64,000 nucleotides of DNA from positions 1,232 to 65,231 of the forward strand of contig JAWOBY010000050.1 of the NCBI GenBank assembly GCA_046484055.1, read 5' to 3'. Positions 1,231 to 40,377 of this stretch are shown here, one piece after another; within the stretch, counting starts at the first letter, position 1, and every line of letters starts with the position of its first letter. The notes beneath the pieces are model-generated. The model was not told the origin of the DNA, searched no databases, and was given only the letters and a program-made list of their open reading frames with translations. Both the position numbers and the translations under genes were made by a program. This DNA comes from Candidatus Woesearchaeota archaeon (GTDB lineage: Archaea > Nanobdellota > Nanobdellia > Woesearchaeales > UBA12501).

Positions 1231-4200
1231 ATGATCGGAAAAAAGAGGTGCAGAAAGGCACAGGTGACTGCCTTCATACTGATAGGTATAATACTCATTG
1301 TGGCGGCGTCATTCTTCGCATACATAACCTACATCGCAAAGAGAGCGCCTTCTGAAGATGCTGTAACAGAGAATCTTCCTGAAAGCCTTGACAAGCTCTC
1401 CCTTGACAATCTTATGAGAACCTGCATAAAGAAAGCAGCGGATCCCAAACTCAAAAGTATCGCGAAATACGGCGGGACGCTGGATCCCGACCCCAACCAA
1501 TACCGGCTTTATAATCATACCAGATACAGGTACCTCTGCAGGCAGGCGCCGGGATATTCAGATTGCGTAAATGCCCTTCTCACAAGGGAGAGCATGCAGA
1601 AAGAGCTCGAAGAGAATGTCAGGGGGGATGCAGTAAGCTGTGTGGATAAGGCTCTGAATTTCTATACAGAGAGGGGTTATGACATAGAGACCGGAAACGC
1701 GAGAACGAATGTTATAGTAGGGACTGATGACGTGAATGTCATCCTGATATACCCAGTGACCGCCTCAAAAGGGGATAACAAGATAAGCGTCTCTGAATAC
1801 TCTGTGAGGTTTGATTACCCTCTCGGAAAGCTTTATGATCTCGCGATGAAGATAATAAACAAGGAGGAGGATGCAGGCCATTTCAATCAGGAGGGGTGGA
1901 TGTACAACCACAGCGCCGAGATACTTGTACAGAAGCACAGGCCATACCCTGACACAGTGTACAGGATAAGCAAGTATGACTGGGCAAAGAGGGAATGGTA
2001 CATATTCAATTTCGCAATACAGGGATATGATGATCTGAAAGAGCTCGCAGGACTCGCGGCATTGGGCGGGCCGGGAAGCTCCGCCTCATCACCATCTTCA
2101 GCGAGATCGACCGCTTACGACCAGGACATCGGATGCTGCTATAATGAGGATGACGGCAACTGCTTTGAGAACAGTGACAAGACACAATGCAGTGATGAGG
2201 GGATGGAGTGGAGAAGAGGCAGCTGTGTCCAGAGCGGTTTCCAGTGCGAATCAAGATCAGAAAAAAGATATGACAACAGGACAGGCCTGTGCAACGGCAG
2301 GGAATGCCGCGATTGCATGGGGCCGACATACAGCAGCGGTGATGACCCTGAAGACCCAGACACATGGACCGGGCCGGCAAGGATGCACGGGGAGTCATGG
2401 TGCGAATATGAAGGGCCCACGGGGAACGGCAAGGATTTTGTGGGCTCAAGGCATTATAAGCATGTTTGCATCGACGGGACAGTCATGGTAGAGGAGTGCA
2501 GGGATTACAGGGACCAGATGTGCGTGGAGGATGAGAAGGAAATCAATGGAGAGACGCTCACAAGGGCTGTATGCAGGCCCAACAGGTGGCAGGACTGCCA
2601 CCTGTACAGCGATGATGAGGATTCCTGTCTTGACACGAGCAAGAGGGACTGTTATTGGTCTGATATGCAGGATAACTTCGTGGTGGGGAAGCCATCAGAT
2701 CAGGATCCTGATCCTGATACACCTTATGAGGACAGGTATTGCGTCCCGAAAGTGGCGCCCGGACTGAAGTTCTGGAACACCATAGAAGGAATGCAGGTGT
2801 GCGGCTGGGCCAACAATTATTATGAGTGCGACATGCCCGGCTGCTTCCAGGAGTGGGTCGATTTTGACGCTGCTTTCTGCGCGATGCAGGGGGACTGCGG
2901 GATACACAGGAATTATCTCGGAAATCTCCCGAGGTTATCATTGAGCGGTTCCATGCCCGGAGAGAACCTGCCCGGTGTCCCTGCAGAGCTGAAAGGTCTT
3001 GGGTTCACGAGCTCAACATCCACCCCCTCTGATCAGCTGTTTGAGACGACGCTTCCGGGAGAGAATCAGGCTTTCACCCAGTTCTATGGGAATTATATGG
3101 GTGATCTTCCCCTCAGCCCTGAACAATGGGGGCAGCCTGAAGTCACTCCCGACCTGTTCGTGCATGACTCCCCTAATGATTACTCCATGTACGGCATGAC
3201 AGAATTCACTCAGGAATTCGCGCAGTGGGGCCTTGACAGGATAGAGAACATAGATGCTGACCTCTACGATTATCTGCTTTATGGGGATTCCATAGAATGG
3301 ACGAGCTTGAGCACAAGCACCTGCAATGTCTGGGCGCCCAGCACCTCAGCAGAGGACTGTGAGAAGTGCAATGGCAACCCTTACAGGCCGTGTACGGAAT
3401 ACAAGTGCAGGAGCCTCGGCCAGTTCTGCAATTATGAGGAGGTTGATGGCGTGGGCAGGTGCACATCATATCAGGCATCAACCATCGGAAAGCCGGTCGT
3501 GAGGTTCGATGGTGCTGTCACAGAAGGGCATGACATAGATGATGCCGCTCTGCCTGCAGGGGGGGAGGTGTATCTCGGAAAAGAGATCAAGGAACCGCTG
3601 CAGCGTGATTTCACGTTCAGGGTGGAGACGAACAGGGAGGCCCAGTGCAAGCTTGCCATGGCTCCGAATGCTGGATTCGCGTTCAATCCTCCCTTTCCCG
3701 GAACGTCCCAGGATTACTCATTCAGCCGGAAGCATAACCTGACCATACCTTACATAAGCACTGAAAGCCTCTCAATCATAAGGCTTCCGATGCAGATGGC
3801 TTCTGCAGCCCATTTCAACCCCGATGATTACTGGAACATGCTCAAGAGCATGATGGACGAGATGATAGATTATGTCGATGACATAGCCGATGACTGCTTT
3901 GACTGCAATCCTGATGATGGGGATTACAGTGATTGCGATGACGGAAGGCTGATCTTCCTCTCAGAGAGCGACTGCGATGATATGGAGGATGTGGAGGACA
4001 AGATGAAGGACATGAGGTCAGAGATGACAAACCTCTGGAACAACCAGCTGAAGGACCAGATAGAGCAGTGGATGAGTTTCGCGGAGGACAATGCCCTTGA
4101 TGAGGTGATGAGCTACGCGGCCATGCAGAACAAGCATCACGCTTTCATAAAGTGCAGGGACAGGGGAGGCAATGAGAACAAGGCGGATCTCGACTTCATA

Positions 4201-34808: not shown

Positions 34809-35609
34809 ATGGATGTAAGTTATCTGTCCAAGGACAAGAAAACAGGGAGAGAATCATTTCTCATAAAAAACTCAAGCCCTATGATGGTTAATGTACTCAG
34901 GAGAGTCATCACCAGTGAAGTCCCGACTATGGCCATAGAGGATGTAGAGATAAGAAAGAACAGCTCAGTGCTGTATGACGAGATGCTGGCCCACAGGCTG
35001 GGGCTGATACCTCTTAAGACCGACCTCTCATCGTATAATACTGGCGAGGAGTGCAAATGCGAGGGTGAGGGGTGCGCCAAATGCACGCTGAAACTCACAA
35101 TGAAGGTGACCGCAAGATCCGATCAGGTAGTGACCGCTTCAGATATAAAATCAAGCGACCCCAAGGTCACTCCTGTATACGCCGACATGCCTGTGGTCAA
35201 ACTGCTCAAGGGGCAACAGATAGAGATAGAGGCCACAGCAAGACTGGGGAGGGGCAAGGAACACATGAAATGGTCGCCGGGCCATGTTTATTACAAGTAC
35301 AAGCCGGAGATCGAGATACAGAAACAGCCCAAGAACCCGGAAGAATTCGCCAAATCATGCCCGATGGGGGTGTTCGAGGTGAAGAACGGCAGGCTGGCAG
35401 TGAACAAGGACAAGCTGCTCGAGTGCCATAACTGCGGTGCGTGTGCTGATGCTGAACAGGGGGCAGTAAGACTCAATGAGTCAGACAGCGAGTTCGTTTT
35501 TTATGTGGAACCGTGGGGGCAGCTGACCGCAAAACAGATGTTCAACACTGCATTCGATGTTTATAACAGTAAGATTGACAGCTTCAAGGAGAGCATAGAC
35601 CGGATCTGA
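34809..35609 (+). CDS. rpoD: DNA-directed RNA polymerase subunit D
   Basis: 266 aa. LRRVITSEVPTMAIEDVEI and AHRLGLIPLK. Cys cluster CPMGVF...CHNCGAC (ferredoxin-like domain 3). Confidence 0.9.
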   Translation: MDVSYLSKDKKTGRESFLIKNSSPMMVNVLRRVITSEVPTMAIEDVEIRKNSSVLYDEMLAHRLGLIPLKTDLSSYNTGEECKCEGEGCAKCTLKLTMKVTARSDQVVTASDIKSSDPKVTPVYADMPVVKLLKGQQIEIEATARLGRGKEHMKWSPGHVYYKYKPEIEIQKQPKNPEEFAKSCPMGVFEVKNGRLAVNKDKLLECHNCGACADAEQGAVRLNESDSEFVFYVEPWGQLTAKQMFNTAFDVYNSKIDSFKESIDRI

Positions 35610-35650
35610 CCGCCCATAAAGTTTGGAGATTTGATTATACAAAGGTTCAT

Positions 35651-35776
35651 GCGGGAGTGCCGGAGGGGTCAAATGGGGCTGCTTTAAGTCTCAGACCAGA
35701 CGGGCTAGGTTGAGGAAAACAATTTCAGAAGCCTAGTGGCTTAGTGCCTGCGCGGGTTCGAAACCCGTCTCCCGCA
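35651..35776 (+). tRNA. tRNA-Leu (anticodon GAG) precursor with two predicted BHB introns
   Basis: Acceptor GCGGGAG/CTCCCGC with discriminator A. T arm GCGGG-TTCGAAA-CCCGT. Anticodon stem CTAGG (35705-09) / CCTAG (35732-36). Anticodon loop TT-GAG-G, interrupted after position 37 by a 15-nt intron (35716-35730). A second, 27-nt intron (35673-35699) sits in the D-loop. Splicing restores a GAGGGGTCAAA D-loop and gives an 84-nt class II tRNA with a 15-nt variable arm. Confidence 0.75.
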
Positions 35777-35806
35777 TAGTGATAATGAAAGACTCAAGAA
35801 AAAACA

Positions 35807-35914
35807 GCGGGAGATAAATCAACGGTCGTGGGATTGAGCGTAGCGAAATCCCACTTGGCATTGCGTGCGAGCTGAGCGTAACCAGCTCCGCGGGTTCGAA
35901 ACCCGTCTCCCGCA
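35807..35914 (+). tRNA. second tandem tRNA-like gene (same acceptor and T-arm as the tRNA-Leu; body not resolvable by eye)
   Basis: 108 nt. 5' GCGGGAG, and a 3' 30-nt block (cgcgggttcgaaacccgtctcccgcatagt) identical to 35747-35776. The interior contains perfect hairpins 35828-35835/35847-35854 (8 bp) and 35869-35874/35883-35888 (6 bp). No canonical D arm or anticodon loop was found. Confidence 0.4.
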
Positions 35915-35966
35915 TAGTAACCATTCGAAATAAGCACCCCCTGTTTTTGGGGCGTAATAAAGACAA

Positions 35967-37698: not shown

Positions 37699-40377
37699 AT
37701 GGCAGACTTCAACGAGATAGCCCGGAAATGGCAGAAGAAGTGGGAAGAGAGCAGTATCTTCAGGTCAGAAGAGGACCCAAAAAAGAAGAAATTCTACTGT
37801 CTTGAGATGTTCCCCTACCCCAGCGGAAAGCTGCACATGGGCCACATGAGGAACTATTCGATAGGTGATGCCCTGGCAAGATACAAGCGCATGAAAGGCT
37901 TCAATGTGATCTACCCGATGGGTTATGACGCGCTCGGCCTGCCTGCAGAGAATGCCGCGATAAAGAACCAGAGCCACCCCAAGGAATGGACCTACAAGAT
38001 GATCGAGGCCATGAAGGAACAGCAGAAACAGCTCGGCCTGAGCTATGACTGGGAGAGGGAGATAGCGACCTGCAGCCCGGCATACTACAGGTGGAACCAG
38101 TGGATGTTCCTCAAATTCCTTGAGAAAGGGCTCGCTTACAGGAAGAAAGCACCCATAAACTGGTGTCCGAAATGCCAGACAGTACTGGCCAATGAGCAGG
38201 TGGAGCAGGGCAAATGCTGGAGGTGCGGCTCTGCTGTCGAGGTAAAAGACCTTGAGCAGTGGTTCCTGAAGATAACAGACTATGCTGAAGAGCTCCTGAG
38301 CGAGCTTGACAAAATGGAGAACTGGCCTGAAAGGGTAAAGACCATGCAGAGGAACTGGATAGGCAAGAGCCACGGCACTATGGTCAACTTCAGGCTTGAA
38401 GAGAGCGGCGAGGCGATACCTGTATTCACCACAAGGCCCGACACATTGTACGGGGTCACTTTCATGGTCTTCGCTCCCGAACATCCCAAGGTCATGGAGC
38501 TTGTGCAGGGCACAGAAAATGAGGACAAGATAAAAAAGTTCATCAACAGGGTGGTCATACAGGAGAAATTCACGAGGACTGCCGAGGACAAGGAGAAAGA
38601 GGGCATGTTCACAGGCAAGTACGCCATAAACCCCCTGACTGAGGAAAAAATACCAATATACATAGCGAACTTCGTTCTCATGGAGTACGGTACAGGAATG
38701 ATAATGGCTGTTCCTGCTCACGACCAGCGCGATTTCGAGTTCGCAAAGAAATTTGACATACCAATAAAGGTGGTGATAAGCCCCGAGACATATGAGCTGA
38801 ATCCGGAAAAGATGAGCCGCGCCTACACTGATGAAGGCGAGCTAGTCAATTCAGGAGATTTTGACGGAATGAACAATCTGGAGGCGATAGAGAGGATATC
38901 AGAGCATATAGAGAAGAAAGGCATGGGAAAGAAGACCGTCCAGTACAAGCTAAAGGACTGGCTCATATCAAGGCAGCGCTACTGGGGCACGCCCATACCT
39001 GTCATATACTGCGAGAGATGCGGAACGGTTCCTGTACCGGAAAAGGACCTTCCTGTTGTTCTGCCTGACAAGGCGAACTTCAGCGGGGAAGGAAACCCTC
39101 TCGCAACTAATGATGATTTTGTCAATGCAAAATGCCCCGCCTGCGGCGGCAAGGCAAGAAGGGAGACAGACACGATGGACACATTCGTGGACAGCTCATG
39201 GTATCCATTCAGGTACTGCGACCCCAAGAATGAAGAGAAGCCCTTCGGAAGCAAGGCAGATTATTGGATGCCTGTTGACCAGTACATAGGGGGTATAGAG
39301 CACGCGATACTCCATCTTTTATACGCGAGATTCTGGACAAAAGCGATTAGGGATATAGGACTTACGAAGGCAAGCGAGCCGTTCTCAGCGCTCCTCTGCC
39401 AGGGCATGGTGATAAAGGACGGCAGGAAGATGAGCAAGAGCTTCGGAAATGTGGTTGATCCCACAGAGATAATAAGCAGGTACGGGCCTGACACTGCAAG
39501 GCTTTTCATACTCTTCGCCGCCCTTCCCGAAAAGGAGCTTGAGTGGAGCGATGAAGGCGTCAACGGAGCTTACAGGTTCCTTAACAGGGTCATGAACCTC
39601 GTGGAGGATGACATCAAGGGAAACGATGCAGGGCTCAACAGCAGGGACAGGTACATAACAGCTAAACAGCACAAGACCATAAAACAGGTCACCCAACACA
39701 TAGACAATTTTGAGTTCAGCCTTGCTATAGGCCGGATAATGGAGTTCGTGAATGCCCTGAACAAGTACAGGGAAGGAAGCATAAACAAGAGTGTGTATGA
39801 TGAGGCGGTCAGGACGACAGCACTGCTACTGTCACCATTCTCCCCCCACCTTGCTGAGGAGATGTGGGAGATGCTCGGGAATGAGGGTTTTATATCCCTG
39901 CATGAATGGCCTGAGCATGATGAGAGCATGATAGACGAGAAGGCGGAGCAGGCAGAGGAAATGATACACAACACAATATCCGACATCAACTCAGTGCTAA
40001 GCCTCACAAAGATAGAAAAACCCTCAAAGATAACCCTGTTCGTCGCCCACAGATGGAAGTATGATTATGTCAGCATGCTGAAGCAGAAGCTGGAAGAGAC
40101 AAGGGATCCGTCAGAGATATTAAAGTCAATAATGCAGACAAAGCTGAAGGAGCACGGCAAGGAGATATCAAAGCTCACGCCGAAGCTCGTGGCGGATGTG
40201 AGCAAGCTGCCCAAAGTAGTGCTTGAGCAGGATTCAGAAGCAAAAGCCCTTGATGAAGGGAAAGAAGCCATAGAGAAAGAATTCAATGCAAGGGTTGAAG
40301 TTATCATGGGCGACAAGAGCAAAGAGGAGAAGGCAAATCAGGCCATGCCCGGAAAGCCCGCAATACTTCTTGAATGA
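37699..40377 (+). CDS. leuS: leucyl-tRNA synthetase, bacterial-type sequence
   Basis: 892 aa. [54 protein letters not shown] (HMGH motif) and KMSKS. The N-terminal block follows the bacterial LeuRS pattern rather than the archaeal/eukaryotic one. Confidence 0.95.

Follow-up and report, generated by a model that had tools for sequence, protein, structure and literature searches.

Organisation of the locus

The rpoD-rpl18e spacer of the window (the whole stretch of 64,000 nucleotides that was analysed) is the site of a tRNA-Leu gene and of a second, tRNA-like unit, and the features of both are collected in Table 1. The host belongs to the DPANN archaea, Woesearchaeota/Nanoarchaeota, among which the best named relatives of its RpoD protein (34809-35609) were found, with at most 72% identity. 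Archaeal RNase P RNA, SRP RNA and tRNA-His were also found in the window. The first gene scored 32.8 bits against the Rfam tRNA family (gathering score 29) and its GAG identity follows from collinearity with the intronless tRNA-Leu(GAG) of two other loci, L007 and L009; judged by this score and collinearity, it is a genuine tRNA-Leu. Its introns lie in the D-loop and at position 37/38, and the tRNAs of the relatives include T-loop introns as well.

Table 1. Positions of the features of the tRNA-Leu gene and of the second unit in the window
Feature	Position	Strand	Basis
tRNA-Leu(GAG) with two introns, parent of the copied ends	35651..35776	+	Rfam and collinearity
A/T-rich spacer, opening with the repeated trailer TAGT (35777-80)	35777..35806	+	sequence read
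TATA-like GTGATAATGA in the spacer, candidate promoter	about 35779-88	+	sequence read
GCGGGAGA, copy of the tRNA-Leu 5' acceptor strand, 8-bp complement to 35906-35913	35807..35814	+	repeat finder
Element E, 77 nt: 5' flank ATAAATCAACGGTC, hairpin 1, linker, hairpin 2	35814..35890	+	covariance model R1
Hairpin 1: 8-bp stem GTGGGATT/AATCCCAC, cap GAGCGTAGCGA (tandem G.A/A.G, then GC-GNA-GC mini-hairpin)	35828..35854	+	repeat finder, RNAfold
Linker TTGGCATTGCGTGC; family consensus roughly CTTRRC..GYGTGY	35855..35868	+	homologue alignment
Hairpin 2: 6-bp stem GAGCTG/CAGCTC, loop AGCGTAAC	35869..35888	+	repeat finder
Exact copy of the tRNA-Leu T arm (GCGGG TTCGAAA CCCGT), acceptor 3' strand CTCCCGC, discriminator A	35890..35914	+	sequence read, repeat finder
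TAGT, duplicated 4-nt tRNA trailer	35915..35918	+	repeat finder

The second unit opens with GCGGGAG exactly as the tRNA-Leu does (35651-57 and again 35807-13), and this claim of the original prediction was borne out by reading of the sequence and by the repeat finder. The prediction also described an identical 30-nt block at the two 3' ends. The block exists and covers the T arm, the acceptor 3' strand, A73 and the trailer TAGT, but it had been placed at 35747-35776 in the tRNA-Leu, and the correct positions are 35751-35780 and 35889-35918. The repeat finder gave a direct repeat of 33 nt (35748-35780 and 35886-35918) with a single mismatch at the third base. As the trailer nucleotides lie outside the mature tRNA and yet belong to the repeat, the repeat arose at the DNA level, and the repeat of another locus (L010), which takes in a T-loop intron, was counted as a sign of the same kind. 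The open reading frames crossing the 105-nt insert were antisense artefacts only, and no recombinase gene lies between the repeats.

The two perfect hairpins at 35828-35/35847-54 and 35869-74/35883-88, predicted earlier, were recovered by the repeat finder, and the internal direct repeat TGAGCGTA was likewise present at 35835-42 and 35873-80. The acceptor complement of the unit extends over 8 bp (GCGGGAGA/TCTCCCGC, repeat finder); by our estimate the chance of such an acceptor 8-mer anywhere in a spacer of about 50 nt is about 7e-4. The TATA-like box lies about 22-28 nt upstream of the unit. The spacer is identical at 37 of 43 positions to that of a related locus, L003, and 3 of 500 shuffles scored as high. 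Homologues of the spacer and 5' flank of the window unit are found at the downstream unit of this locus (L003d), and a resemblance to the tRNA-Leu leader of loci devoid of element E was also noted.

Comparison of the unit with tRNA models

The original prediction held that the body of the unit does not fold as a cloverleaf. A D arm and a 7-nt anticodon loop are indeed absent; the nuance is that the RNA was predicted by RNAfold as a four-way junction formed by the acceptor stem, hairpin 1, hairpin 2 and the T arm (-51.4 kcal/mol, z = -4.9). The 3-4-3 bulge-helix-bulge (BHB) motif proposed earlier, with the helix TGCG (35862-65) / CGCG (35889-92), did not survive, as RNAfold merely lengthens hairpin 2 by 3 bp over a 1-nt bulge and these pairs are lost in the homologues. 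The tRNA characters that were found are a 7-bp acceptor stem, a T arm with the loop TTCGAAA and the discriminator, all identical to those of the tRNA-Leu, and within the family they are found in the window copy only.

The search of Rfam 15 gave no match of the unit to RF00005 even at E <= 10. The sole Rfam hit of the unit was tRNA-Sec with 18.3 bits against a gathering score of 47, and element E corresponds to no Rfam family. ARAGORN in its default mode missed both the tRNA-Leu and the second unit. A clean cloverleaf from a predictor had been named beforehand as the result that would make the unit an ordinary intron-containing tRNA; the cloverleaf that ARAGORN in intron mode (-i) forces on the unit, a tRNA-Ala(GGC) with a 12-nt intron at 35807-35914, is rejected by the comparative pair counts. 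The supposed intron is the 3' half of the covarying hairpin 1 and has no BHB. In 10 homologues, the D and anticodon stems of this model had 52% of the cells paired with 0 compensatory pairs, and 500 of 500 shuffles were as good, whereas the two-hairpin model on the same alignment had 93% of the cells paired and compensatory changes in 10 of 16 pairs, with 0 of 500 shuffles as good. Compensatory changes were found across the homologues in 5 of the 6 pairs of hairpin 2. The Ala-GGC cloverleaf was rejected because it breaks a strongly covarying hairpin and its own stems are not conserved in the 10 homologues.

The earlier suggestion of a multi-intron isoacceptor is not supported, on similar grounds: the hairpin body, including the TTGAG loop, adjoins the 3' ends of tRNA-His, tRNA-Val and tRNA-Ser elsewhere, it has no BHB, and the forced cloverleaf is not conserved. 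Since the same hairpin body stands at Leu, His, Val and Ser ends, the TTGAG loop cannot be read as a Leu anticodon, and the occurrence of E does not depend on tRNA identity. The derivation of hairpin 2 from the tRNA-Leu variable arm and of hairpin 1 from the anticodon arm was also considered and rejected, because the same hairpins accompany the ends of class I tRNAs (His and Val). On the basis of these sequence comparisons, the unit at 35807-35914 is not a decoding tRNA.

Homologues, arrangements and distribution of element E

For the comparative analysis, 80 Woesearchaeal rpoD loci were fetched and their spacers were read. The covariance model R1, built from seven E copies, scored 81.3 bits for the window copy and 51-72 bits for the other copies. 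With the filters off, it gave the window copy as the sole E in the 64-kb window, and no further E was found by R1 in the 544 kb of loci searched. E was found in seven related Woesearchaeota/Nanoarchaeota loci and in one metagenome contig; the lineages bearing it include JAHWIC01, CAYNHV01, WJJV01 and JAHJCS01, and the pattern specific to archaeal E is GGGATTGAGCGNAGCGAAATCCCAC.

Two arrangements were observed. In arrangement A, a conserved promoter/leader precedes E, which directly abuts the 5' end (position +1) of a complete tRNA; such copies occur at tRNA-Leu (the upstream copy of L003, here L003u, those of L005 and L007, and the 5'-truncated copy of L201) and at tRNA-Ser(UGA) (L197). In arrangement B, the tRNA is followed by a spacer of 10-60 nt, by E and then by a copy of the last 13-55 nt of the same tRNA, which is Leu for the window, L003d and L010, His for L004, Val for L006 and Ser for L197. 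As E stands either 5' of an intact tRNA (A) or downstream of one (B), the essential tRNA stays intact in both arrangements. All full or partial E copies (12 of 12) are co-oriented with their tRNA, and other small hairpin modules are nested within E copies. By alignment and covariation, E is a conserved covarying module separate from the tRNA ends. The original prediction had offered a partially duplicated pseudogene as one reading; this was essentially right for the tRNA-derived ends, but the middle is a separate conserved element which recurs elsewhere.

The distribution of E is patchy. It is absent at the tRNA-Leu of L001, L002, L004, L202/L203, L204 and L220 (RpoD 62-71% identical to that of the window) and in about 70 further loci examined. 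The closest relatives with readable spacers (L001, L202/L203, L204 and L220; RpoD 68-71%) carry the tRNA-Leu with no E, while the contigs L201, L218 and L219 end inside the tRNA-Leu and are uninformative on a downstream unit. The locus L010 has E, and its near relative L011 is an empty site. Several copies have decayed: most of hairpin 1 is missing in L201, the tip of L003u has been lost to a nested 49-nt hairpin module, and L197 also contains a solo hairpin 1. This distribution points to gain and loss rather than to a conserved gene. In the comparison of the rpoD-rpl18e spacer in relatives, which the original prediction had proposed as a check, the stems of E are conserved and covary, the tRNA-like frame is decayed or absent, and the closest relatives have no unit.

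Junctions between E and the host tRNA

Among the six arrangement-B copies, the window copy alone has a complete tRNA-like frame, its acceptor being 8 bp long and its T arm perfect. The 5' acceptor strand of L003d has decayed to AAAGGAG, and L004 and L010 have no 5' acceptor complement; the T stem is broken in these three copies and absent from L006 and L197. Identity with the host tRNA is confined to the last 13-55 nt of each unit. In L003d, L004 and L010, the final 17, 18 and 55 nt have 0 changes relative to the neighbouring tRNA, whereas the 13-15 nt just upstream have 3-5 changes. The diverged stretch, CCGTT.CGTT.GGTTAAA, is common to one copy at tRNA-Leu and one at tRNA-His (20 of 25 positions identical), so it is part of E and not of the local tRNA. 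The right end of E is thus its own; it resembles the 5' part of a T arm and is joined to the host tRNA in or near the T loop. The Leu junction has the form that a deletion between the GCGGG pentamers (positions 1-5 and 49-53) of 'E + tRNA' would give.

Relation of hairpin 1 to mobile DNA

Hairpin 1 has the tip GAGCGNAGCGA on a GGATT/AATCC stem. The hairpins at the two termini of an IS200-like transposon family have exactly this tip, and bacterial REP hairpins of the GTAG type have the same tip and stem. A metagenome scan was carried out with the 21-nt pattern of hairpin 1; the matches listed comprise more than 120 metagenomic GTAG-REP/REPIN copies, and they also include a single new archaeal locus, L197, and a single IS200-like locus, L145. 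The latter is an AT-rich contig with an IS200-like Y1 transposase gene (Pfam PF01797, E = 5e-26) that is flanked on each side by hairpins bearing this tip. Eight further members of the IS family have LE and RE hairpins tipped with GAGCGNAGCGA or close variants, and in these members the RE hairpin has AACG at its 5' foot, a feature that E shares.

The homologues of the L145 transposase are numerous, lie mostly on short contigs and occur in mixed bacterial and archaeal contexts, among which no specific link to Woesearchaeota was found. The tblastn search of the window and all loci with the IS200-like transposase revealed no copy beyond its source contig. Neither the window nor the genome fragments covered for the E-bearing loci yielded a transposase or integrase, and no E-related sequence was found in plasmid and phage collections (BLAST) or in viral-contig collections.

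In the archaeal loci and the window together, 10 tip hairpins with at least 5 flanking bp were found against about 0.75 expected. Tip hairpins occur in both orientations near the tRNA-Leu, and in L016 and L058 those in minus orientation use the 5' end of the tRNA-Leu as one arm. The linker and hairpin 2 were compared with the RE tail and the LE terminus of the IS family, and the similarity was marginal (p about 0.01-0.04); the idea that this part is an IS RE-LE circle junction was dropped for this reason. The stems contain 6 G.T against 4 A.C, which is no excess and gives no sign of strand-specific selection on an RNA, although this asymmetry test for RNA-level folding is of little informative value here. 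The d(GCGNAGC) sequence forms an exceptionally stable DNA mini-hairpin, a property that fits recognition of the tip as single-stranded DNA.

Interpretation and alternative explanations

The explanation that we favour, with a rough probability of one half, is that the unit is a DNA-level chimeric pseudo-tRNA derived from a REP/IS200-like hairpin element which colonises tRNA genes. E, which is flanked by copies of the two ends of the adjacent tRNA-Leu (7-8 nt of its 5' end and 30 nt of its 3' end, 4 trailer nucleotides included), would be a sporadic hairpin repeat of the REP or IS200-IS605-end type residing in the tRNA genes of this Woesearchaeal clade. Template switching or the hairpin chemistry of single-stranded DNA would have served to insert or duplicate it, with the T loop and the GCGGG pentamer as the probable homology, and the Leu unit would correspond to 'E + tRNA' minus positions 6-53, which lie between the GCGGG pentamers. 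The copy of the tRNA 3' end may stem from template switching or recombination involving the GCGGG pentamers and the T loop, from integration of a small tRNA-mimicking circle, or from tandem duplication and a later deletion. The unit itself would not be required for any function, and a transcript of it, if there is one, could be cut back by RNase P and RNase Z to a tRNA-shaped by-product of 108 nt.

Several observations weigh against this explanation or fit others as well. A single E stands in the 64-kb window and no locus has two identical copies, so that a recent transposition is at most conjectural. E also has no GTAG tag, its linker and hairpin 2 resemble IS ends only marginally, and the genome fragments covered gave no transposase or integrase. 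The common orientation of all 12 E copies with their tRNA fits an RNA-level role too, and the perfect 8-bp acceptor and T arm kept by the window copy, together with the TATA-bearing spacer conserved with L003, fit an expressed gene.

One rival takes the unit as a functional tRNA-shaped non-coding RNA with its own promoter. Its acceptor and T arm would bring in RNase P, RNase Z and the CCA-adding enzyme, and the E hairpins would be the working body, for example as a protein-binding scaffold or a LeuRS decoy. Archaeal LeuRS reads A73 and the long variable arm and not the anticodon. The T arm identical to that of the tRNA-Leu, the A73, and hairpin 2 ending 1 nt before the T arm like a class-II variable arm are what such an RNA would show, and the covarying stems, the upstream TATA-like box and the low z-score of the predicted four-way junction are in accordance with it. 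Against it, a recent duplication would account equally well for the perfect identity of the ends, the acceptor complement and T stem are decayed or missing in the other units as described above, and the E of arrangement A is a 5' leader that RNase P would remove, so E has no constant RNA ends. The earlier proposal of a non-tRNA RNA with borrowed ends is thus possible for the window copy and unsupported as a property of the family, the frame being decayed or absent in 5 of 6 arrangement-B copies and the unit missing in the closest relatives. As the window copy is the most intact one known and its predicted junction is stable and could be processed by RNase P and RNase Z, this RNA stays a live rival, of low probability.

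A second rival, which we rate as similarly doubtful, regards E as a cis-acting leader RNA of the pre-tRNA that serves processing, stability or regulation and is vertically inherited; the window unit would be a tandem duplicate of 'promoter-leader-E-tRNA-Leu' which lost tRNA positions 6-53 by slippage between the GCGGG pentamers. Lying between promoter/leader and +1 in arrangement A (L003u, L005, L007), E must be transcribed there. The leader of the E-less L204, CTCACAATCAAT directly before the tRNA, matches the sequences CTCACACTCAAT and AAATCAAC that precede E in L005 and in the window, respectively, and the order in L003 is exactly E, tRNA, spacer, E and deleted tRNA. In addition, Y-GYNRRG always follows hairpin 2, and in arrangement A it is the 5' end of the tRNA. 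This account is opposed by the fusion of E to the 3' ends of tRNA-His, tRNA-Val and tRNA-Ser, where the sequence after hairpin 2 is not the 5' end of that tRNA, by the many close genomes in which the same tRNA-Leu is processed with no E, by related tip hairpins in the opposite orientation, and by the comparison of L010 with L011, which indicates a recent gain with a 55-nt perfect repeat.

Somewhat less probable, and unlikely on the whole, is that the window copy itself is the intact form of a novel type of gene-less miniature mobile element of DPANN, about 110-140 nt long and a tRNA mimic. It would be mobilised in trans by a recombinase, Y1 (IS200-type) or other, with hairpin 1 as its recognition site, and would enter real tRNA genes by recombination at the T loop, which is universally conserved, or at the 3' end, so that the host tRNA is restored and a chimeric gene resembling a tRNA is left behind. 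Read in this manner, the unit consists of acceptor strand, E hairpins, T arm and acceptor strand with a short promoter-bearing spacer.

The scar of a larger integrative plasmid or virus is improbable; the 30-nt copies of the tRNA 3' end would then stand for attL and attR, and E would be the arm left over from an element that lost its genes by deletion. As in an att scar, direct repeats of the tRNA 3' end surround foreign DNA in six loci (33 nt in the window, 13-55 nt in L003, L004, L006, L010 and L197), empty sites were found (L001, L011, L202, L204 and L220), and the boundary of the identity core is sharp, with a conserved element-borne arm adjoining it; tRNA fragments left by integrating elements have a precedent in Archaea (PMC3293823). 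The insert is, however, 75-165 nt long in all six independent cases with no integrase nearby, arrangement A stays unexplained, and the plasmid, phage and viral collections gave no match. A genuine intron-containing tRNA, either Ala-GGC with a 12-nt intron or a Leu isoacceptor, is hardly credible in spite of the ARAGORN -i call and of a TT-NNN-A pattern in the linker of some copies, since, besides the missing Rfam match, the missing BHB and the unconserved stems, the Ala model would need a 4-bp T stem along with a long variable arm and the real tRNA-Leu was miscalled in the same -i run.

Significance and comparison with known systems

If the favoured pseudo-tRNA explanation is true, the tRNA genes of reduced DPANN genomes are targets of a previously undescribed small hairpin element, which makes tRNA-end duplications and pseudo-tRNAs and has its recognition hairpin in common with bacterial REP/IS200 elements. 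It would then bear on the origin of disrupted and fragmented archaeal tRNA genes and on the existence of REP-like systems in Archaea. Expression of the unit, on the other hand, would make it a tRNA-framed non-coding RNA of a kind rarely met in Archaea. For tRNA annotation, the intron mode of ARAGORN yields a false tRNA-Ala at this site.

No description of an E-like element was found in the literature searched. Fragments of tRNA from elements that integrate into archaeal tRNA genes are known, for example the tRNA-Thr fragment of Caldiarchaeum (PMC3293823). As in tRNA integration of the pNOB8/SSV type, an intact tRNA is kept, a tRNA-end repeat flanks foreign DNA and the occurrence among relatives is patchy; unlike it, the insert of the window is about 105 nt, there is no recombinase, and a conserved two-hairpin module is present which also lies 5' of intact tRNAs with no repeat.

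With the REP/REPIN-RAYT systems, the IS200/IS605 hairpins and the PATEs (REP families are described in PMC3733652), E shares the identical tip GAGCGNAGCGA on GGATT/AATCC, the short non-coding form and the compensatory stems, and also the nested hairpin modules and the related intergenic hairpins in both orientations. It differs from REP/REPIN in the hairpin flanks, CGGTC and CTTGG, with no GTAG/CGTC tag, in the lack of inverted doublets, in the low apparent copy number with one copy in 64 kb and in the absence of a Y1 transposase from the window and the archaeal loci. Neither the close tie to tRNA ends nor the duplicated tRNA 3' end seen with E is a property of IS200/IS605 or REP insertions.

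The tRNA-like domain of tmRNA, the mascRNA-type 3' ends and the tRNA-linked sRNAs resemble the unit in that an acceptor and T arm frame a non-tRNA body and processing by RNase P and RNase Z is plausible, but the frame of the E unit is copied from the adjacent tRNA and decays in the homologues. The disrupted archaeal tRNAs (multi-intron, split and permuted) have the DPANN host and the intron-rich tRNAs in common with this locus, whereas the unit has no BHB or recoverable cloverleaf and its body is shared by units with different tRNA ends. What is new here is the combination of tRNA fragments with REP/IS200 hairpins, the host lineage and the tRNA-mimicking frame.

tRNA-Leu of the window

The tRNA-Leu(GAG) gene of the window was missed by ARAGORN in default mode, and in intron mode it was mis-called as Leu(TAA) having a 46-nt intron which engulfs the true anticodon arm. 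The AT-GCGGG...CCCGCA-T pattern, by which the leader and trailer lengthen its acceptor helix, was found again in many related loci. Downstream of this gene, rpl18e-rpl13-rps9-rpoN precede the leucyl-tRNA synthetase gene. The coordinates of all features are summarized in the table.

Features at the tRNA-Leu gene and in related or matched contigs
Feature	Location	Details
Genuine tRNA-Leu(GAG)	window 35651-35776	two introns: ~27 nt in D loop, 15 nt at position 37/38
Acceptor helix lengthened by 2 bp	window 35649-35657 / 35769-35777	ATGCGGGAG/CTCCCGCAT
Leucyl-tRNA synthetase gene	window 37699-40377	same strand as tRNA-Leu, 1.8 kb downstream
tRNA-Leu with T-loop intron	L008 3871-3935; L010 3891-3945; L011 ~3925-3973; L014 ~3960-4020	
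Exact 29-nt tandem duplication within tRNA-Leu	L041 3856-3912	CCAAATGCACTAGGTTGAGGGCCTAGTCC x2, spanning anticodon arm
Contig ends inside tRNA-Leu, closest relatives	L218 at 1515; L219 at 1775; L201 at 2383	
Tandem units / reverse tip-motif hairpins near tRNA-Leu	L051 3811-3942; L016 3837-3931; L058 3849-3874	
Two-hairpin module nested inside E	L003 2717-2765; L004 ~160-212	~50 nt, at two different E positions
Conserved hairpin cluster, tRNA-Leu to rpl18e	L003 3160-3235; L004 2905-2970; L202 2420-2560	..AACCTGGGAAAA..GGCGACTCCTGGTTGCTTCGCAACAGGAGTCCCC..
Abundant IS200-like family	L145 100-830; L210-L217	154-aa Y1 transposase

tRNA-Leu and its surroundings in relatives

The tRNA-Leu genes of several relatives carry T-loop introns of 30-50 nt, and the tandem duplication in one locus (L041) may represent either an insertion resembling an intron or an artefact of assembly. 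Three contigs of the closest relatives break within tRNA-Leu, as would be produced by a tRNA 3' end repeat misleading the assembler; one of these ends is the exact T-loop start.

Three further loci (L051, L016 and L058) have tandem units upstream of tRNA-Leu, each headed by a copied tRNA 5' strand, and the tRNA 5' GCGGG forms the 3' arm of reverse-orientation tip-motif hairpins, TTCGCTNACGCTCA. The module nested in the two-hairpin element E has the form CTGCAAATGC-AGN-GCATTTGCAG, then CCTKWAAATTGC..GCAATTTWMAG. Its stems have compensatory changes between the L003 and L004 copies, and it is therefore probably another small mobile repeat. The hairpin cluster preceding rpl18e may serve as the leader of an r-protein operon, or may be a further repeat.

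Comparison with REP/REPIN and IS200-like elements

Among the matches listed, the exact 21-nt hairpin GGATTGAGCGNAGCGAAATCC is common to the archaeal element E and to high-GC, GTAG-tagged REP/REPIN doublets, which come from soil metagenome contigs (L081-L200). The left end of the IS200-like family is TTTAGGGCGAGCC... and its right end is ...GTAGTTTAC, and most of its members are carried by short contigs, fitting a multicopy element as expected. The tip of both its subterminal hairpins is GAGCGNAGCGA or a close variant.
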